This document shows positions 27,466 through 54,363 of a stretch of DNA of 64,000 bases, one piece after another. The stretch comes from Escherichia coli (GTDB taxonomy: Bacteria > Pseudomonadota > Gammaproteobacteria > Enterobacterales > Enterobacteriaceae). The stretch lies in the NCBI RefSeq assembly GCF_003790525.1, contig NZ_CP033635.1; one strand, written 5' to 3'. The notes under the pieces are model-generated. The model was given only the letters and a program-made list of their open reading frames with translations, made no database searches and was not told where the DNA came from. Numbering within the stretch: position 1 is the stretch's first letter; each line of letters opens with the position of its first letter. The translations under genes and the position numbers were made by a program.

Positions 27466-27551
27466 TTTTTTTGCCACAGGTCAATTCCCTTTTGGTCCGA
27501 ACTCGCACATAATACGCCCCCGGTTTGCACACCGGGAATCCAGGAGAGTTC

Positions 27552-28562
27552 ATGTACTACCCCTTCGTTCGTAAAGCCCTTTTCCAGCTCGATCCAGAGC
27601 GCGCTCATGAGTTTACTTTTCAGCAATTACGCCGTATTACCGGAACGCCGTTTGAAGCACTGGTGCGGCAGAAAGTGCCTGCGAAACCTGTTAACTGCAT
27701 GGGCCTGACGTTTAAAAATCCGCTTGGTCTGGCAGCCGGTCTTGATAAAGACGGGGAGTGCATTGACGCGTTAGGCGCGATGGGTTTTGGATCTATCGAG
27801 ATCGGTACCGTCACGCCACGTCCACAGCCAGGTAATGACAAGCCGCGTCTCTTTCGTCTGGTAGATGCCGAAGGTTTGATCAACCGTATGGGCTTTAATA
27901 ATCTTGGCGTTGATAACCTCGTAGAGAACGTAAAAAAAGCCCATTATGATGGCGTCCTGGGTATTAACATCGGCAAAAATAAAGATACGCCGGTGGAGCA
28001 GGGTAAAGATGACTATCTGATTTGTATGGAAAAAATCTATGCTTATGCGGGATATATCGCCATCAATATTTCATCGCCGAATACCCCAGGACTACGCACA
28101 CTGCAATATGGCGAAGCGCTGGATGATCTCTTAACCGCGATTAAAAATAAGCAAAATGATTTGCAAGCGATGCACCATAAATATGTGCCGATCGCAGTGA
28201 AGATCGCGCCGGATCTTTCTGAAGAAGAATTGATCCAGGTTGCCGATAGTTTAGTTCGCCATAATATTGATGGCGTTATTGCAACCAATACCACGCTCGA
28301 TCGTTCTCTGGTTCAGGGAATGAAAAATTGTGATCAAACCGGTGGCTTAAGTGGTCGTCCGCTTCAGTTAAAAAGCACAGAAATTATTCGCCGCTTGTCA
28401 CAGGAATTAAACGGTCGCTTACCGATCATCGGTGTTGGCGGCATTGACTCGGTTATCGCTGCGCGTGAAAAGATTGCTGCGGGGGCCTCACTGGTGCAAA
28501 TTTATTCTGGTTTTATTTTTAAAGGTCCGCCGCTGATTAAAGAAATCGTTACCCATATCTAA
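27552..28562 (+). CDS. pyrD: Dihydroorotate dehydrogenase (quinone), 336 aa
   Basis: Matches PyrD from [21 protein letters not shown]; class 2 DHODH. Confidence 0.95.
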
Positions 28563-32601: not shown

Positions 32602-34509
32602 ATGTCATTAATCAGTATGCATGGCGCATGGCTGTCGTTCAGCGACGCGCCGCTTCTCGATAACGCAGAACTGCATATCGAAGATAACGAACGTGTTTGT
32701 CTGGTAGGTCGTAACGGCGCAGGCAAATCGACGTTAATGAAGATCCTCAACCGTGAACAGGGGCTGGATGACGGTCGCATTATTTATGAGCAAGATTTGA
32801 TTGTAGCTCGTCTGCAACAGGATCCGCCGCGTAACGTTGAGGGTAGCGTTTATGATTTCGTTGCCGAAGGCATTGAAGAACAAGCGGAATATCTGAAACG
32901 CTATCACGATCTTTCGCGCCTGGTGATGAACGACCCGAGCGAGAAAAATCTCAACGAACTGGCGAAGGTTCAGGAACAGCTGGATCACCACAACCTGTGG
33001 CAGCTGGAAAACCGCATCAACGAAGTGCTGGCGCAACTGGGATTAGATCCTAATGTTGCGCTGTCGTCGCTTTCCGGCGGCTGGTTGCGTAAAGCGGCAT
33101 TAGGACGCGCGCTGGTGAGCAATCCGCGTGTATTGCTGCTCGACGAACCGACTAACCACCTGGATATTGAAACCATCGACTGGCTGGAAGGGTTCCTCAA
33201 AACCTTCAATGGGACAATTATTTTCATTTCCCACGACCGTTCGTTTATCCGCAATATGGCGACGCGCATTGTTGATCTCGATCGCGGCAAGCTGGTGACC
33301 TATCCAGGGAATTACGACCAGTACCTGCTGGAAAAAGAAGAAGCCCTGCGCGTGGAAGAATTACAAAATGCCGAGTTCGATCGCAAACTGGCGCAGGAAG
33401 AGGTGTGGATCCGCCAGGGGATCAAAGCGCGCCGTACCCGTAATGAAGGCCGCGTACGCGCCCTGAAAGCAATGCGCCGTGAACGTAGCCAGCGCCGTGA
33501 GGTCATGGGGACGGCAAAGATGCAGGTGGAAGAAGCCAGCCGCTCCGGAAAGATCGTTTTCGAAATGGAAGACGTTTGCTACCAGGTTGACGGTAAGCAA
33601 CTGGTGAAAGATTTTTCTGCCCAGGTTCTACGTGGCGACAAAATTGCCCTGATTGGCCCGAATGGGTGCGGCAAAACCACGCTGCTGAAACTGATGCTCG
33701 GTCAGCTTCAGGCGGACAGCGGGCGTATTCACGTTGGCACCAAACTGGAAGTGGCTTATTTCGATCAGCACCGTGCGGAACTGGATCCCGATAAAACGGT
33801 GATGGATAACCTTGCCGAAGGTAAGCAAGAGGTGATGGTTAACGGCAAGCCACGCCACGTATTGGGCTATTTGCAGGACTTCCTGTTCCATCCGAAACGG
33901 GCGATGACGCCGGTACGTGCGCTTTCTGGCGGTGAGCGGAACCGCTTGCTGCTGGCGCGTTTGTTCCTCAAACCAAGCAACTTATTGATTCTTGACGAAC
34001 CGACCAACGATCTTGATGTCGAAACGCTGGAACTGCTGGAAGAACTGATCGACAGCTACCAGGGCACGGTATTGCTGGTAAGCCACGATCGTCAGTTTGT
34101 CGATAACACCGTTACAGAATGCTGGATCTTCGAAGGCGGCGGTAAAATTGGTCGTTATGTCGGCGGTTATCATGATGCCCGTGGTCAGCAAGAGCAGTAT
34201 GTGGCGCTCAAACAGCCTGCGGTGAAAAAAACCGAAGAAGCCGCCGCGGCAAAAGCAGAAACTGTAAAACGCAGCAGTAGCAAACTAAGCTATAAATTGC
34301 AGCGCGAACTGGAGCAGCTACCGCAATTGCTTGAAGATCTGGAGGCGAAGCTGGAAGCCCTACAGACGCAGGTGGCGGATGCTTCCTTCTTCAGTCAGCC
34401 CCATGAGCAGACACAAAAAGTGCTCGCTGATATGGCTGCTGCAGAGCAGGAGCTGGAGCAAGCCTTTGAACGCTGGGAGTATCTTGAAGCGTTAAAAAAT
34501 GGTGGCTGA
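32602..34509 (+). CDS. uup: ABC-F family ATPase Uup, 635 aa
   Basis: Two ABC cassettes (Walker A GRNGAGKST and GPNGCGKTT) with a C-terminal coiled-coil/DNA-binding tail; 11 bp after rlmL. Confidence 0.94.
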   Translation: MSLISMHGAWLSFSDAPLLDNAELHIEDNERVCLVGRNGAGKSTLMKILNREQGLDDGRIIYEQDLIVARLQQDPPRNVEGSVYDFVAEGIEEQAEYLKRYHDLSRLVMNDPSEKNLNELAKVQEQLDHHNLWQLENRINEVLAQLGLDPNVALSSLSGGWLRKAALGRALVSNPRVLLLDEPTNHLDIETIDWLEGFLKTFNGTIIFISHDRSFIRNMATRIVDLDRGKLVTYPGNYDQYLLEKEEALRVEELQNAEFDRKLAQEEVWIRQGIKARRTRNEGRVRALKAMRRERSQRREVMGTAKMQVEEASRSGKIVFEMEDVCYQVDGKQLVKDFSAQVLRGDKIALIGPNGCGKTTLLKLMLGQLQADSGRIHVGTKLEVAYFDQHRAELDPDKTVMDNLAEGKQEVMVNGKPRHVLGYLQDFLFHPKRAMTPVRALSGGERNRLLLARLFLKPSNLLILDEPTNDLDVETLELLEELIDSYQGTVLLVSHDRQFVDNTVTECWIFEGGGKIGRYVGGYHDARGQQEQYVALKQPAVKKTEEAAAAKAETVKRSSSKLSYKLQRELEQLPQLLEDLEAKLEALQTQVADASFFSQPHEQTQKVLADMAAAEQELEQAFERWEYLEALKNGG

Positions 34510-34638
34510 TCGCAAAATAGTCGATTTAAACAGAGACAGCTGACAACGGTAAAATTGCCTGATGAACTGGGTTTATCAGGCATGAAAACCAACACTTTGT
34601 TCGTCATCTGTAAAATAGCGCATCATTAAGGAGTACCA

Positions 34639-35892
34639 ATGTGCGAACATCATCATGCCGCGAAGCACATCCTGTGCTCGCAGTGTGACATGCTGGTGGC
34701 GTTACCGCGCCTTGAGCATGGTCAGAAAGCGGCATGTCCCCGGTGTGGCACAACGTTAACCGTGGCGTGGGATGCCCCTCGGCAGCGTCCCACCGCCTAT
34801 GCGTTGGCTGCACTGTTCATGCTGTTGCTGTCCAACTTGTTTCCTTTTGTGAATATGAACGTTGCGGGAGTCACCAGTGAAATTACATTACTGGAAATTC
34901 CCGGCGTGCTTTTTTCTGAGGACTACGCCAGCCTCGGCACCTTTTTCCTGTTGTTTGTGCAACTGGTTCCCGCGTTTTGTCTGATAACCATTCTGTTACT
35001 GGTGAATCGCGCGGAATTACCGGTCCGTTTAAAAGAGCAACTGGCACGGGTGCTTTTTCAACTCAAAACCTGGGGAATGGCGGAAATTTTCCTCGCGGGA
35101 GTGCTGGTCAGTTTCGTTAAACTGATGGCCTACGGCAGCATTGGTGTCGGCAGTAGCTTTCTCCCCTGGTGTTTATTTTGTGTCCTGCAACTGCGCGCCT
35201 TTCAGTGCGTTGATCGTCGCTGGTTATGGGACGATATCGCCCCGATGCCAGAACTGCGCCAGCCGCTAAAACCTGGCGTCACGGGGATACGTCAGGGGCT
35301 GCGTTCTTGCTCCTGTTGTACGGCAATCCTTCCTGCTGATGAACCCGTATGCCCGCGCTGTGGTACTAAAGGGTACGTTCGGCGTAGAAACAGCCTGCAG
35401 TGGACACTCGCGCTGCTTGTAACGTCCATCATGCTGTACCTTCCGGCTAATATTTTGCCCATCATGGTGACGGATTTATTAGGCTCGAAGATGCCATCGA
35501 CGATTCTCGCTGGGGTCATCCTGTTATGGAGCGAAGGATCTTATCCCGTCGCTGCGGTTATCTTTCTGGCCAGTATTATGGTGCCAACGTTAAAGATGAT
35601 CGCCATAGCGTGGTTGTGTTGGGATGCCAAAGGGCATGGCAAGCGCGACAGTGAAAGAATGCATTTGATTTATGAAGTTGTTGAGTTTGTAGGCCGCTGG
35701 TCGATGATTGACGTTTTCGTTATCGCGGTGCTCTCGGCGCTGGTGCGTATGGGAGGTTTAATGAGTATTTATCCGGCAATGGGTGCATTAATGTTTGCTT
35801 TAGTCGTCATAATGACAATGTTTTCTGCTATGACGTTTGACCCGCGTTTGTCGTGGGATCGTCAACCTGAATCAGAGCATGAGGAGTCCTGA
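34639..35892 (+). CDS. pqiA: Paraquat-inducible inner membrane protein PqiA, 417 aa
   Basis: Duplicated PqiA module, each with a CxxC...CxxC zinc-ribbon-like motif followed by transmembrane helices. Confidence 0.92.
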   Translation: MCEHHHAAKHILCSQCDMLVALPRLEHGQKAACPRCGTTLTVAWDAPRQRPTAYALAALFMLLLSNLFPFVNMNVAGVTSEITLLEIPGVLFSEDYASLGTFFLLFVQLVPAFCLITILLLVNRAELPVRLKEQLARVLFQLKTWGMAEIFLAGVLVSFVKLMAYGSIGVGSSFLPWCLFCVLQLRAFQCVDRRWLWDDIAPMPELRQPLKPGVTGIRQGLRSCSCCTAILPADEPVCPRCGTKGYVRRRNSLQWTLALLVTSIMLYLPANILPIMVTDLLGSKMPSTILAGVILLWSEGSYPVAAVIFLASIMVPTLKMIAIAWLCWDAKGHGKRDSERMHLIYEVVEFVGRWSMIDVFVIAVLSALVRMGGLMSIYPAMGALMFALVVIMTMFSAMTFDPRLSWDRQPESEHEES

Positions 35893-35896
35893 CAGT

Positions 35897-37537
35897 ATGG
35901 AATCTAATAATGGGGAAGCCAAAATCCAGAAAGTGAAGAACTGGTCTCCCGTGTGGATATTTCCTATCGTCACGGCGCTCATTGGGGCCTGGGTTCTTTT
36001 TTATCATTACAGCCATCAGGGGCCGGAAGTGACCCTGATCACCGCGAATGCGGAAGGAATAGAAGGTGGTAAAACCACCATTAAAAGCCGTAGCGTTGAC
36101 GTCGGCGTGGTTGAAAGCGCCACACTGGCTGATGATTTGACGCACGTTGAAATCAAAGCGCGGCTGAATTCCGGTATGGAAAAATTGCTGCATAAAGATA
36201 CCGTCTTTTGGGTGGTGAAACCGCAGATTGGTCGAGAAGGGATTAGCGGCCTGGGAACGCTGCTGTCTGGGGTTTATATCGAACTGCAGCCAGGCGCAAA
36301 AGGCAGCAAAATGGATAAATACGATTTGCTGGACTCGCCACCGTTGGCCCCGCCTGATGCGAAAGGTATCCGTGTGATTCTCGATAGCAAAAAAGCCGGG
36401 CAGCTCTCGCCAGGAGATCCCGTGCTGTTCCGTGGCTATCGGGTAGGTTCGGTTGAAACCAGCACCTTCGATACGCAAAAACGCAATATCAGCTATCAAC
36501 TGTTCATCAATGCACCTTATGACCGACTGGTGACCAGCAATGTTCGCTTCTGGAAAGATAGTGGCATTGCGGTTGATTTGACGTCAGCGGGAATGCGTGT
36601 GGAGATGGGCTCATTGACAACGCTGCTTAGTGGCGGTGTCAGCTTTGATGTGCCGGAAGGTCTGGATTTAGGGCAGCCAGTGGCACCGAAAACAGCTTTC
36701 GTTTTGTATGATGATCAGAAGAGCATTCAGGATTCGTTGTACACCGATCACATTGATTATCTGATGTTCTTTAAAGATTCGGTACGCGGTCTGCAACCGG
36801 GAGCTCCGGTAGAATTCCGGGGTATTCGCCTGGGTACCGTAAGCAAAGTGCCATTCTTTGCGCCGAATATGCGTCAGACATTTAACGATGATTACCGTAT
36901 TCCGGTACTGATTCGTATCGAGCCAGAGCGGCTGAAAATGCAGCTTGGAGAAAATGCGGATGTTGTTGAGCACCTTGGCGAATTGTTGAAACGTGGTTTA
37001 CGCGGATCGCTGAAAACCGGAAACCTGGTCACTGGCGCACTGTATGTTGATCTCGATTTCTATCCAAATACGCCTGCAATAACCGGTATTCGTGAATTTA
37101 ATGGTTATCAGATTATCCCGACCGTTAGCGGCGGTCTGGCGCAAATCCAGCAACGACTGATGGAAGCGTTGGATAAGATCAACAAACTGCCATTGAATCC
37201 GATGATTGAACAGGCAACCAGTACGCTTTCTGAAAGTCAGCGCACAATGAAAAACCTGCAAACGACGCTGGATAGCATGAACAAGATCCTCGCCAGCCAG
37301 TCGATGCAGCAGTTACCGACGGATATGCAGTCAACGTTGCGTGAATTGAATCGCAGTATGCAGGGCTTCCAGCCTGGCTCCGCAGCCTACAACAAGATGG
37401 TGGCGGATATGCAGCGACTTGATCAGGTGTTGCGAGAACTGCAACCGGTGCTGAAAACGCTCAACGAGAAGAGTAACGCGCTGGTATTTGAAGCGAAGGA
37501 CAAAAAAGATCCAGAGCCGAAGAGGGCGAAACAATGA
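35897..37537 (+). CDS. pqiB: MCE-domain intermembrane transport protein PqiB, 546 aa
   Basis: N-terminal TM anchor, tandem MCE domains, long C-terminal coiled-coil; start placed at MESNNGEAKIQK. Confidence 0.92.
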   Translation: MESNNGEAKIQKVKNWSPVWIFPIVTALIGAWVLFYHYSHQGPEVTLITANAEGIEGGKTTIKSRSVDVGVVESATLADDLTHVEIKARLNSGMEKLLHKDTVFWVVKPQIGREGISGLGTLLSGVYIELQPGAKGSKMDKYDLLDSPPLAPPDAKGIRVILDSKKAGQLSPGDPVLFRGYRVGSVETSTFDTQKRNISYQLFINAPYDRLVTSNVRFWKDSGIAVDLTSAGMRVEMGSLTTLLSGGVSFDVPEGLDLGQPVAPKTAFVLYDDQKSIQDSLYTDHIDYLMFFKDSVRGLQPGAPVEFRGIRLGTVSKVPFFAPNMRQTFNDDYRIPVLIRIEPERLKMQLGENADVVEHLGELLKRGLRGSLKTGNLVTGALYVDLDFYPNTPAITGIREFNGYQIIPTVSGGLAQIQQRLMEALDKINKLPLNPMIEQATSTLSESQRTMKNLQTTLDSMNKILASQSMQQLPTDMQSTLRELNRSMQGFQPGSAAYNKMVADMQRLDQVLRELQPVLKTLNEKSNALVFEAKDKKDPEPKRAKQ

Positions 37538-38097
37538 AAAAGTGGCTAGTGACGATTGCAGCACTGTGGCTGGCCGGATGCAGCTCCGGCGAAATTAATA
37601 AAAACTATTACCAGTTACCTGTGGTGCAGGGCGGTACACAAAGTACCGCCAGCCAGGGTAATCGCCTGTTATGGGTAGAGCAGGTCGCTGTTCCTGACTA
37701 TCTGGCGGGAAATGGTGTGGTTTATCAAACCAGTGATGTGAAGTATGTGATTGCCAACAACAACTTGTGGGCCAGCCCGTTGGATCAACAGTTGCGCAAC
37801 ACTCTGGTTGCCAACCTGAGCACGCAACTGCCCGGCTGGGTGGTTGCCTCCCAGCCTCTGGGAAGCGCCCAGGATACGCTCAATGTTACCGTAACGGAGT
37901 TTAACGGGCGATATGATGGCAAGGTCATTGTCAGTGGTGAATGGCTGTTGAACCACCAGGGACAACTGATCAAACGTCCGTTCCGTCTGGAAGGGGTGCA
38001 AACTCAGGATGGTTACGATGAGATGGTTAAAGTACTGGCCAGTGTCTGGAGTCAGGAAGCCGCTTCTATTGCGCAAGAGATAAAGCGTCTACCTTAA
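37534..38097 (+). CDS. pqiC: Outer-membrane lipoprotein PqiC (YmbA), 187 aa
   Basis: Lipobox LAGC at the end of the signal peptide (MKKWLVTIAALWLAGCSS); overlaps the pqiB stop. Confidence 0.9.
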   Translation: MKKWLVTIAALWLAGCSSGEINKNYYQLPVVQGGTQSTASQGNRLLWVEQVAVPDYLAGNGVVYQTSDVKYVIANNNLWASPLDQQLRNTLVANLSTQLPGWVVASQPLGSAQDTLNVTVTEFNGRYDGKVIVSGEWLLNHQGQLIKRPFRLEGVQTQDGYDEMVKVLASVWSQEAASIAQEIKRLP

Positions 38098-38352
38098 TTA
38101 TAAAGATTTGTAAATATAACCGCCTCCGGTATGTTGCCTGAGGCGGTTTTTTTGTCTCTAACGTGCGGAAAAAGTTGTTCCTCTTCACATTTTTTGTACA
38201 ACTGACATGCCCGTGTAGCTCACAAATATGACAGTGGCGTGAATTTTGCGCATTGACGGCAGTTATGATTCGCGGTATTGCTTAACTGTGATTGCACATT
38301 TAGTAATCACTGTTTTCTTTTCCACCAGAAACCAGTATGAGGGAAACGAGGC

Positions 38353-38520
38353 ATGAAGAGACAAAAACGAGATCGCCTGGAACGGGCACATCAACGTGGT
38401 TATCAGGCCGGCATCGCCGGACGCTCAAAAGAAATGTGTCCCTATCAGACGCTGAATCAAAGGTCACAATGGCTGGGAGGCTGGCGAGAAGCCATGGCGG
38501 ACAGGGTAGTAATGGCCTGA
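38353..38520 (+). CDS. rmf: Ribosome modulation factor, 55 aa
   Basis: Translation MKRQKRDRLERAHQRGYQAGIAGRSKEMCPYQTLNQRSQWLGGWREAMADRVVMA matches Rmf; the overlapping 65-aa ORF in the track is in another frame and is rejected. Confidence 0.93.
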   Translation: MKRQKRDRLERAHQRGYQAGIAGRSKEMCPYQTLNQRSQWLGGWREAMADRVVMA

Positions 38521-38537
38521 TTCTGTCTCTTTAAAAA

Positions 38538-38570
38538 GAAACCTCCGCATTGCGGAGGTTTCGCCTTTTT
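38538..38570. terminator. Bidirectional terminator between convergent rmf and fabA
   Basis: Stem cctccgca...tgcggagg flanked by A-run and T-run. Confidence 0.7.
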
Positions 38571-38589
38571 ATACTCTGTCTGATTATTA

Positions 38590-39108
38590 TCAGAAGGCAG
38601 ACGTATCCTGGAACAGACCGACTTTCAGGTCGCTGGCGGTATAGATCAGACGACCATCAACCAGCACTTCGCCATCTGCCAGACCCATAATCAGACGACG
38701 ATTAACAATGCGTTTAAAGTGAATACGGTAGGTTACTTTTTTCGCTGTCGGCAGTACCTGACCAGTGAATTTCACTTCGCCAACGCCCAGCGCGCGGCCT
38801 TTACCTTCGCCGCCCAGCCAGCCGAGGTAGAACCCTACCAGCTGCCACATTGCGTCCAGGCCCAGGCATCCCGGCATAACCGGATCGCCAATGAAGTGGC
38901 ATCCGAAGAACCACAGATCCGGATTGATATCCAGCTCTGCTTCAACATACCCTTTGTCGAAGTTACCACCCGTTTCGGTCATTTTGACCACACGGTCCAT
39001 CATCAGCATGTTCGGTGCTGGCAATTGCGGGCCTTTAGCGCCAAACAGTTCACCGCGACCAGAGGCAAGAAGGTCTTCTTTTGTATAGGATTCGCGTTTA
39101 TCTACCAT
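38590..39108 (-). CDS. fabA: 3-hydroxydecanoyl-ACP dehydratase/isomerase, 172 aa
   Basis: Matches FabA from [30 protein letters not shown]; the ORF-track 238-aa extension runs through the promoter and is rejected. Confidence 0.95.
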
Positions 39109-54275: not shown

Positions 54276-54363
54276 TGGCGGAAGCGCAGAGATTCGAACT
54301 CTGGAACCCTTTCGGGTCGCCGGTTTTCAAGACCGGTGCCTTCAACCGCTCGGCCACACTTCC
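54276..54363 (-). tRNA. serT: tRNA-Ser (UGA anticodon), 88 nt, class II tRNA with long variable arm
   Basis: Minus-strand sequence GGAAGTGTGGCCGAGCGGTTGAAGGCACCGGTCTTGAAAACCGGCGACCCGAAAGGGTTCCAGAGTTCGAATCTCTGCGCTTCCGCCA: acceptor stem pairs, anticodon loop CT-TGA-AA, encoded CCA end. Confidence 0.93.

Follow-up and report, generated by a model that had tools for sequence, protein, structure and literature searches.

The pqiABC operon on the Escherichia coli chromosome: gene arrangement, predicted protein architecture and relation to the neighbouring rmf gene

The pqiABC locus and its conservation

The window analyzed here is a 64,000-nucleotide stretch of Escherichia coli DNA (NCBI RefSeq assembly GCF_003790525.1, contig NZ_CP033635.1; one strand, 5' to 3'). 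Between positions 34639 and 38097 it carries three genes, pqiA, pqiB and pqiC, which an earlier note made from the letters of the sequence had described as an MCE-family, envelope-spanning system lying upstream of rmf (Table 1). We put the probability at about 97% that these genes are the pqiABC operon of the E. coli chromosome, and that their products follow the PqiA-PqiB-PqiC model of an envelope-spanning tunnel. Nothing weighs against the identification. It is correct, it was already known and it is of low interest in itself, and the sequence adds nothing on the substrate, direction or energy source of the system.

The identification is supported by comparison of positions 34400-38600 with all complete E. 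coli genomes by megablast, in which all 4201 base pairs (bp) agreed at 100% identity with E. coli SMS-3-5 (NC_010498.1) and with several further strains; of the 5426 genomes, 5425 contained a match to the locus. In RefSeq, the identical stretch is annotated with pqiA, pqiB, pqiC and rmf at exactly the coordinates first read from the sequence, with uup upstream and fabA and ycbZ, both convergent, downstream. The operon belongs to the core chromosome of E. coli and occurs in essentially all complete genomes. Nine E. coli records listed as "plasmids" in PLSDB (CP088669.1, NZ_CP141089.1 and others; 0.26-4.9 Mb) also carry pqiABC at 98-99% identity. These look like chromosomes or chromosome fragments misfiled as plasmids, the multi-megabase ones having the size of a chromosome, and among the PLSDB matches, all of which are typed as non-mobilizable, no sign of mobility of pqiABC was found.

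The closest known form of the system is that of K-12 (b0950-b0952; PDB 5UVN for PqiB, 8Q2C and 8Q2D for PqiC), whose gene set, gene order, junctions and 255-bp spacer before rmf are identical to those of the window, as are the lengths of PqiA, PqiB and PqiC (417, 546 and 187 residues). Relative to K-12 MG1655, the window proteins differ at one residue in PqiA (S242G), one in PqiB (N214S) and three in PqiC (S33G, T52A, G170S), while Rmf is identical. The pqiC-rmf spacer is identical at 252 of 255 positions (three substitutions) and the uup-pqiA spacer at 128 of 129. Because the three Pqi proteins are nearly identical to their K-12 counterparts, the structures and genetics obtained with the latter carry over directly. 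The window itself matters solely as a correct annotation, its proteins being near-identical to ones already solved and genetically studied; it is PqiABC as a system that is of interest, for the route by which phospholipids reach the outer membrane, for the direction of transport through MCE tunnels and for the powering of the LetA/PqiA family.

Table 1. Coordinates of pqiABC, of motifs and domains within it, and of flanking features (window positions).
Feature	Position	Strand	Description
pqiA	34639..35892	+	417 aa; inner-membrane LetA/PqiA-family subunit with two zinc ribbon + transmembrane modules
PqiA N-terminal zinc-ribbon motif CSQC-X16-CPRC	34675..34746	+	residues 13-36; CxxC at C13-C16 and C33-C36
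PqiA C-terminal zinc-ribbon motif CSCC-X10-CPRC	35308..35361	+	residues 224-241; CxxC at C224-C227 and C238-C241
pqiB	35897..37537	+	546 aa; named by RefSeq, NCBIfam PqiB equivalog and PDB 5UVN
PqiB MCE domain 1	36020..36295	+	residues 42-133; PF02470, 51.0 bits as isolated segment
PqiB MCE domain 2	36365..36610	+	residues ~157-238; PF02470, 41.7 bits as isolated segment
PqiB MCE domain 3	36764..37060	+	residues ~290-388; PF02470, 44.1 bits as isolated segment
PqiB C-terminal helical (coiled-coil needle) region	37193..37486	+	residues 433-530; helix interrupted by prolines 474, 493 and 517
pqiC	37534..38097	+	187 aa; outer-membrane lipoprotein (Pfam, NCBIfam, PDB)
PqiC lipobox LAGC	37570-37581	+	residues 13-16; Cys16 the acylated residue; Ser (not Asp) at +2
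Intrinsic-terminator-like hairpin with T7 run	38118..38153	+	21 nt past pqiC stop; probable 3' end of the pqiABC transcript
rmf promoter and 5' untranslated region	38154..38352	+	published sigma70 start at ~38295 (PMC6134199)
rmf, ribosome modulation factor	38353..38520	+	55 aa; neighbouring gene outside the Pqi system
uup-pqiA intergenic region	34510..34638	+	129 bp; sigma70-like hexamer pair at 34527-34555; Shine-Dalgarno AAGGAG at 34628-34633
uup	32602-34509	+	directly upstream, 129 bp from pqiA; RefSeq "ABC transporter ATP-binding protein"

Architecture of PqiA, PqiB and PqiC

The domain annotation that had been proposed as a check of the identification was carried out and bears it out, with Pfam finding PqiA twice, MlaD three times, ABC_trans_aux and RMF in the expected products, and all three Pqi proteins scoring above their NCBIfam cut-offs. 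In PqiA, the two matches to Pfam PqiA (PF04403, E 1.3e-92) cover residues 49-200 and 253-408. The protein reaches 843.5 bits over residues 1-417 against the PqiA equivalog model NF011683 of NCBIfam (cut-off 562) and 661.2 bits against TIGR00155 (cut-off 260.35), and it matches the structure of its paralogue LetA, also called YebS (PDB 9N8W, E 1.4e-43). The duplicated, zinc-ribbon-like CxxC pairs that had been noticed in PqiA are both present. They begin at residues 13 and 33 and at residues 224 and 238, so that one pair precedes each PF04403 match at the start of each half, an arrangement that fits the zinc-ribbon domains solved in LetA. Aligned to one another, the two halves give a local score of 119, as opposed to 32.6 ± 5.3 (maximum 60) in 200 shuffles; judged by this alignment they are clearly homologous. 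The Pfam double-zinc-ribbon families match residues 219-244 weakly, below threshold.

In the structure of LetAB, the LetA/PqiA family is described as two "LetA modules", each made of a cytoplasmic zinc ribbon (CxxC-Xn-CxxC) and a transmembrane domain, with a family motif, GRWSM-psi-D-psi-F, in the C-terminal transmembrane domain (PMC13017536). The same motif is found in PqiA as GRWSMIDVF at residues 352-360. Zinc binding has been shown by inductively coupled plasma mass spectrometry for LetA only, and the zinc ribbons of PqiA functionally replace those of LetA (PMC13017536). Given its conserved cysteines and this functional swap, PqiA would be expected to bind zinc as well. Two details of its cysteines may be added. 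The spacer of the second ribbon, at 10 residues, falls just below the range of 11-18 given for the family (PMC13017536), and an extra cysteine, Cys226, makes the first half of this motif CSCC. A fifth CxxC in PqiA, CLFC at residues 178-181, lies within a hydrophobic stretch, and is incidental and outside any zinc ribbon.

PqiB is assigned with equal clarity by the PqiB equivalog model NF008070 of NCBIfam (862.7 bits, cut-off 525) and by PDB 5UVN, "Paraquat-inducible protein B" (E 2.7e-263). The N-terminal anchor ascribed to it corresponds to a single hydrophobic segment at residues 16-37 (one cluster of hydrophobic 19-mers). A domain search that found no MCE domain in PqiB had been named as the result that would count against its tandem MCE domains; by Pfam there are exactly three. 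Scanned as a whole, the protein matches MlaD (PF02470) over three stretches (E 3.7e-37), and the scores in Table 1, for which each segment was scanned in isolation, are to be read against a gathering score of 25.1 bits. The long coiled-coil also has its counterpart, in a periodic C-terminal helix over residues 433-530. This region is rich in Leu, Gln and Ser, with a hydrophobic period of ~3.4 residues that is reached by none of 1000 shuffles; over the last ~125 residues of the protein, families of the coiled-coil type are matched only below threshold. By cryo-electron microscopy, PqiB is a hexamer whose domains MCE1, MCE2 and MCE3 build a stack of three rings, while its C-terminal helices come together as a hollow needle, a coiled coil of six helices. 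The assembly is ~230 Å long, in keeping with the width of the periplasm, and a continuous channel runs through its centre (10.1101/064360). Since only one residue separates the window PqiB from that of K-12, this hexameric barrel-and-needle assembly should carry over to it.

PqiC completes the set. It covers all 161 positions of the 161-position Pfam profile ABC_trans_aux (PF03886, E 2.9e-40), scores 285.1 bits against NF033620, the "exception"-type pqiC model of NCBIfam (cut-off 200), and matches PDB 8Q2C (E 2.7e-121) as well as 8Q2D and 6OSX. Its N-terminus, MKKWLVTIAALWLAGC followed by SS (also given as MKKWLVTIAALWLAGCSS and, with the motif set apart, as MKKWLVTIAALW-LAGC-SS), contains the clear lipobox that had been pointed out from the sequence. 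Sorting of lipoproteins follows the +2 rule. With serine in that position, the start of PqiC reads as a textbook lipoprotein signal peptide and marks the protein as a predicted outer-membrane lipoprotein, whose localization has been reported (PMC10897342). In the crystal, PqiC of K-12 is an octameric toroid that embeds in the lipid head-group region; it tethers PqiAB to an outer-membrane mimic, and it is needed for function in lauryl-sulfobetaine complementation assays (PMC10897342). According to a 2026 preprint, PqiC has a hydrophobic groove on its outer-membrane face to which PqiB binds by its C-terminal peptide (10.64898/2026.05.09.724024).

Gene junctions, probable transcript ends and the neighbouring rmf

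The earlier note held that the three genes overlap or abut. This is so for pqiB and pqiC, which share a 4-nt overlap (ATGA), but a gap of 4 nt lies between pqiA and pqiB, the TGA of the former being followed by CAGT and then the ATG of the latter. In the list of open reading frames, the longest pqiB frame begins further upstream, at a TTG at 35837, 20 codons before the ATG at 35897 and overlapping the end of pqiA. The ATG is nonetheless the favoured start, because it is the one chosen by RefSeq, it is served by a GAGGAG Shine-Dalgarno sequence, and the NCBIfam profile begins at residue 8 of the 546-aa form. With the genes in the order A-B-C on one strand, their junctions close-packed and a terminator-like hairpin 3' of pqiC, pqiABC is most likely a translationally close-packed three-gene operon ending at that hairpin. 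The pqi operon was defined by Nakayama and Zhang-Akiyama (2017), as cited in PMC10897342.

The hairpin after pqiC consists of AACCGCCUC-CGGUAUGUUGCCU-GAGGCGGUU followed by seven T's. Its stem is GC-rich, with 9+4 pairs, and its minimum free energy is -21.1 kcal/mol (z -3.96), a stability matched by none of 200 shuffles; a terminator scan picked it up in part. One stem position, 38123, is C in the window and T in K-12, so that a G-C pair here becomes a G-U pair there and pairing is kept.

The claim that rmf follows on the same strand 255 bp downstream of pqiC proved exact by the RefSeq coordinates. The identity of the gene is supported by Pfam RMF (E 1.7e-22) and by the NCBIfam equivalog (92.1 bits, cut-off 40). 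A single sigma70 start site for rmf has been mapped 58 nt upstream of its ATG, and the whole pqiC-rmf spacer has been treated as an rmf promoter region and probe, to which many regulators bind (PMC6134199). The strong hairpin and T-run 3' of pqiC, together with this mapped promoter, make rmf most likely an independent unit; rmf is probably transcribed separately from pqiABC, and the link between the two is positional only. Taken together, the RNA fold and the published rmf promoter place the probable 3' end of the pqiABC transcript at the hairpin.

One may ask instead whether pqiABC functions as a single transcription unit with rmf, in which read-through past pqiC supplies a meaningful share of rmf mRNA and so couples envelope maintenance to ribosome hibernation. 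The genes do lie on the same strand, 255 bp apart. Intrinsic terminators are rarely 100% efficient. A literature search also turned up no transcript data on pqiC-rmf in either direction, and no Term-seq paper that mentions pqiC. Set against this are the strength of the hairpin and the seven T's, 21 nt after the pqiC stop, the retention of that hairpin in K-12 through the G-C to G-U change, the mapped promoter inside the spacer, and the service of that spacer in the literature as a regulator-bound rmf probe (PMC6134199); nor is a pqiC-rmf operon named in any paper found. A common unit is therefore improbable, although some read-through may occur. Still less probable is a narrower version, in which the pqiC terminator is conditionally leaky, so that stress induction of pqiABC also raises rmf; all that speaks for it is the same-strand adjacency of the genes. 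Were it true, lipid homeostasis of the outer membrane and ribosome hibernation would be tied together by a single transcript.

Two further structures lie on either side of the rmf coding sequence. An 8-bp hairpin at 38288-38310 (GTGATTGC...GTAATCAC) falls at about the published start (~38295) and might form a stem-loop where the rmf mRNA begins; as a whole, the rmf 5' untranslated region does not fold significantly more stably than shuffles (z -1.75). Downstream, between rmf (+) and the convergent fabA (-), a perfect 11-bp stem at 38538-38562 (GAAACCTCCGC-atT-GCGGAGGTTTC) has an A-run upstream and a T-run downstream. Its fold of -19.4 kcal/mol (z -4.94), and its score on both strands in the terminator scan, suggest what looks like a shared bidirectional terminator of the two genes.

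Upstream of pqiA, a scan for sigma70-like promoters found one site, as opposed to 4.7 expected in shuffles. The site at 34527-34555 is a consensus match only, in a region with fewer matches than chance would give, and is accordingly no evidence of promoter function. The same scan missed the rmf promoter known from the literature, and is uninformative on promoters here.

Three side observations concern other features of the region. A 223-aa antisense open reading frame at 35828-36499 (-), wholly within pqiB and absent from the RefSeq annotation, is most likely a shadow of the pqiB coding strand. An E-value scan of positions 34300-38800 against Rfam gave sub-threshold matches only. Among these, a GlmZ_SraJ match at 37970-38152, over the end of pqiC and the terminator, reached 22.6 bits, where the gathering score is 60, and was judged a chance, terminator-driven hit, and matches to the rnk and Leu leaders, on terminator hairpins, were likewise set aside as chance. 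Over the whole window, the Rfam scan returned a PyrD leader, at 97.9 bits, together with a single tRNA gene, at 27484-27557 (+) and 54279-54363 (-), outside pqiABC.

A working model of transport and its relation to other MCE systems

The earlier note saw in the three genes a single periplasm-spanning lipid transport machine. The architecture is supported by the domains described above and by the published structures, while lipid transport is the field's working model. In that model, PqiA, an inner-membrane member of the LetA/PqiA transporter family built of two modules, each a cytoplasmic four-cysteine zinc ribbon and a transmembrane domain, would take phospholipids, or hydrophobic molecules like them, out of the inner membrane and load them into PqiB. 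The latter, held in the inner membrane by its single N-terminal helix, would provide a hydrophobic tunnel of ~230 Å made of three hexameric MCE rings and the six-helix needle, of sufficient length to bridge the periplasm. PqiC would form an octameric ring round the needle tip, bind the C-terminal peptide of PqiB and so tether the tunnel to the outer membrane, to which the cargo would be delivered.

The genetics are consistent with a role in the envelope, in that mutation of pqiAB causes sensitivity to lauryl sulfobetaine, an effect that adds to those of mlaD and yebST (PMC5561183). Three points limit the mechanistic side of the model. Single pqiAB mutants have no defect in outer-membrane lipid asymmetry and no sensitivity to sodium dodecyl sulfate-ethylenediaminetetraacetic acid (PMC5561183). 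Transport that stops at the outer membrane and transport that crosses it are both left possible (10.64898/2026.05.09.724024), and for the LetA/PqiA family both passive and proton-motive-force-driven transport have been considered (PMC10897342, PMC13017536).

In a variant of the model, PqiABC would work with an outer-membrane partner and carry its hydrophobic substrate across that membrane, or it would run retrograde, from the outer to the inner membrane. The 2026 preprint allows both options and raises outer-membrane partners (10.64898/2026.05.09.724024), the direction of transport by LetAB is not settled in the LetA structure paper (PMC13017536), and the intact lipid asymmetry of pqiAB mutants (PMC5561183) would fit. 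The operon, on the other hand, most likely ends at the terminator after pqiC and offers no candidate partner gene, and the structural model of LetA favours export from the inner membrane (PMC13017536). We consider the variant unlikely, though it deserves to be kept in view, and prefer delivery from the inner to the outer membrane.

The historical name of the genes, "paraquat-inducible", invites a quite different account, by which PqiABC would serve mainly in defence against paraquat or oxidative stress, for example by paraquat efflux, and would not be an envelope lipid transporter. In the original work of Koh and Roe, however, the name reportedly arose from induction of a promoter fusion, as opposed to any resistance function. 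Some genomic surveys do list pqiABC among paraquat-related genes (PMC13210998). Yet the hydrophobic, trans-periplasmic tunnel of MCE rings is a fold tied to lipid transport (10.1101/064360, PMC10897342), and the phenotypes found consist of sensitivity to detergent and defects of the envelope that add to those of mlaD and letAB (PMC5561183). A primary role in paraquat defence is very improbable, and envelope lipid transport is the account retained here.

The source of energy raises the question of uup. By analogy with MlaF of the Mla system, Uup might be the missing ATPase that powers PqiABC, its gene lying on the same strand directly upstream, 129 bp from pqiA. Uup is a single chain of 635 residues in which two ABC_tran domains are joined by an ABC_tran_Xtn linker and followed by ABC_tran_CTD, an architecture that, judged by these domains, is of the soluble ABC-F type. 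Proteins of the ABC-F type have ribosomes or nucleic acids as their targets, and are not known to dock on membrane permeases. The operon also lacks an MlaE-like permease, and the intergenic region between uup and pqiA has its own Shine-Dalgarno sequence and promoter-like site. PqiA, it has been suggested, might use "an as yet unidentified ATPase" (PMC10897342), but the LetA structure paper considers passive or proton-driven transport without invoking ATP (PMC13017536). Uup as a partner ATPase was rejected on its ABC-F architecture and the lack of an MlaE-like permease in the operon, and is the most improbable of the alternatives weighed here. More generally, an ABC-type MCE transporter like Mla joins an MlaF ATPase and an MlaE permease to its MCE protein, and the operon here is made of pqiA, pqiB and pqiC only. 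With no ABC ATPase or permease in the operon, and with Uup a soluble ABC-F type, PqiABC should not be classed among the ABC transporters, even though PqiC goes by the name "ABC-type transport auxiliary lipoprotein" in Pfam.

Among related systems, LetAB (YebST; PDB 9N8W, 6V0C) of E. coli is a paralogue of PqiABC. LetA and PqiA share the two-module architecture of zinc ribbons and transmembrane domains, and both carry the GRWSM-x-D-x-F motif. LetB, a homologue of PqiB (E 1.2e-81), is likewise an MCE tunnel protein, but it stacks seven MCE rings and has no needle, and LetAB has no PqiC-like lipoprotein; PqiB, by contrast, has three rings and a coiled-coil needle, and needs PqiC.

In the Mla system of E. 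coli (MlaFEDB-MlaC-MlaA), MlaD is the single-domain MCE prototype and forms hexameric rings, and the mutant phenotypes are additive with those of pqiAB. Mla relies on an ABC-type ATPase (MlaF) and permease (MlaE) and on a soluble periplasmic carrier, MlaC, with no continuous tunnel, whereas Pqi has no ABC components in its operon and has PqiA instead. A further parallel is offered by PA3211-PA3214 of Pseudomonas aeruginosa, in which the MCE needle protein PA3213 is accompanied by an octameric, PqiC-like ring, PA3214, that binds the C-terminal peptide of the MCE protein. This system, from another species and with a four-gene arrangement, is likened to PqiABC from published descriptions, as opposed to sequence comparison. 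In P. aeruginosa, moreover, LetA modules can be divided between two genes (PMC13017536).

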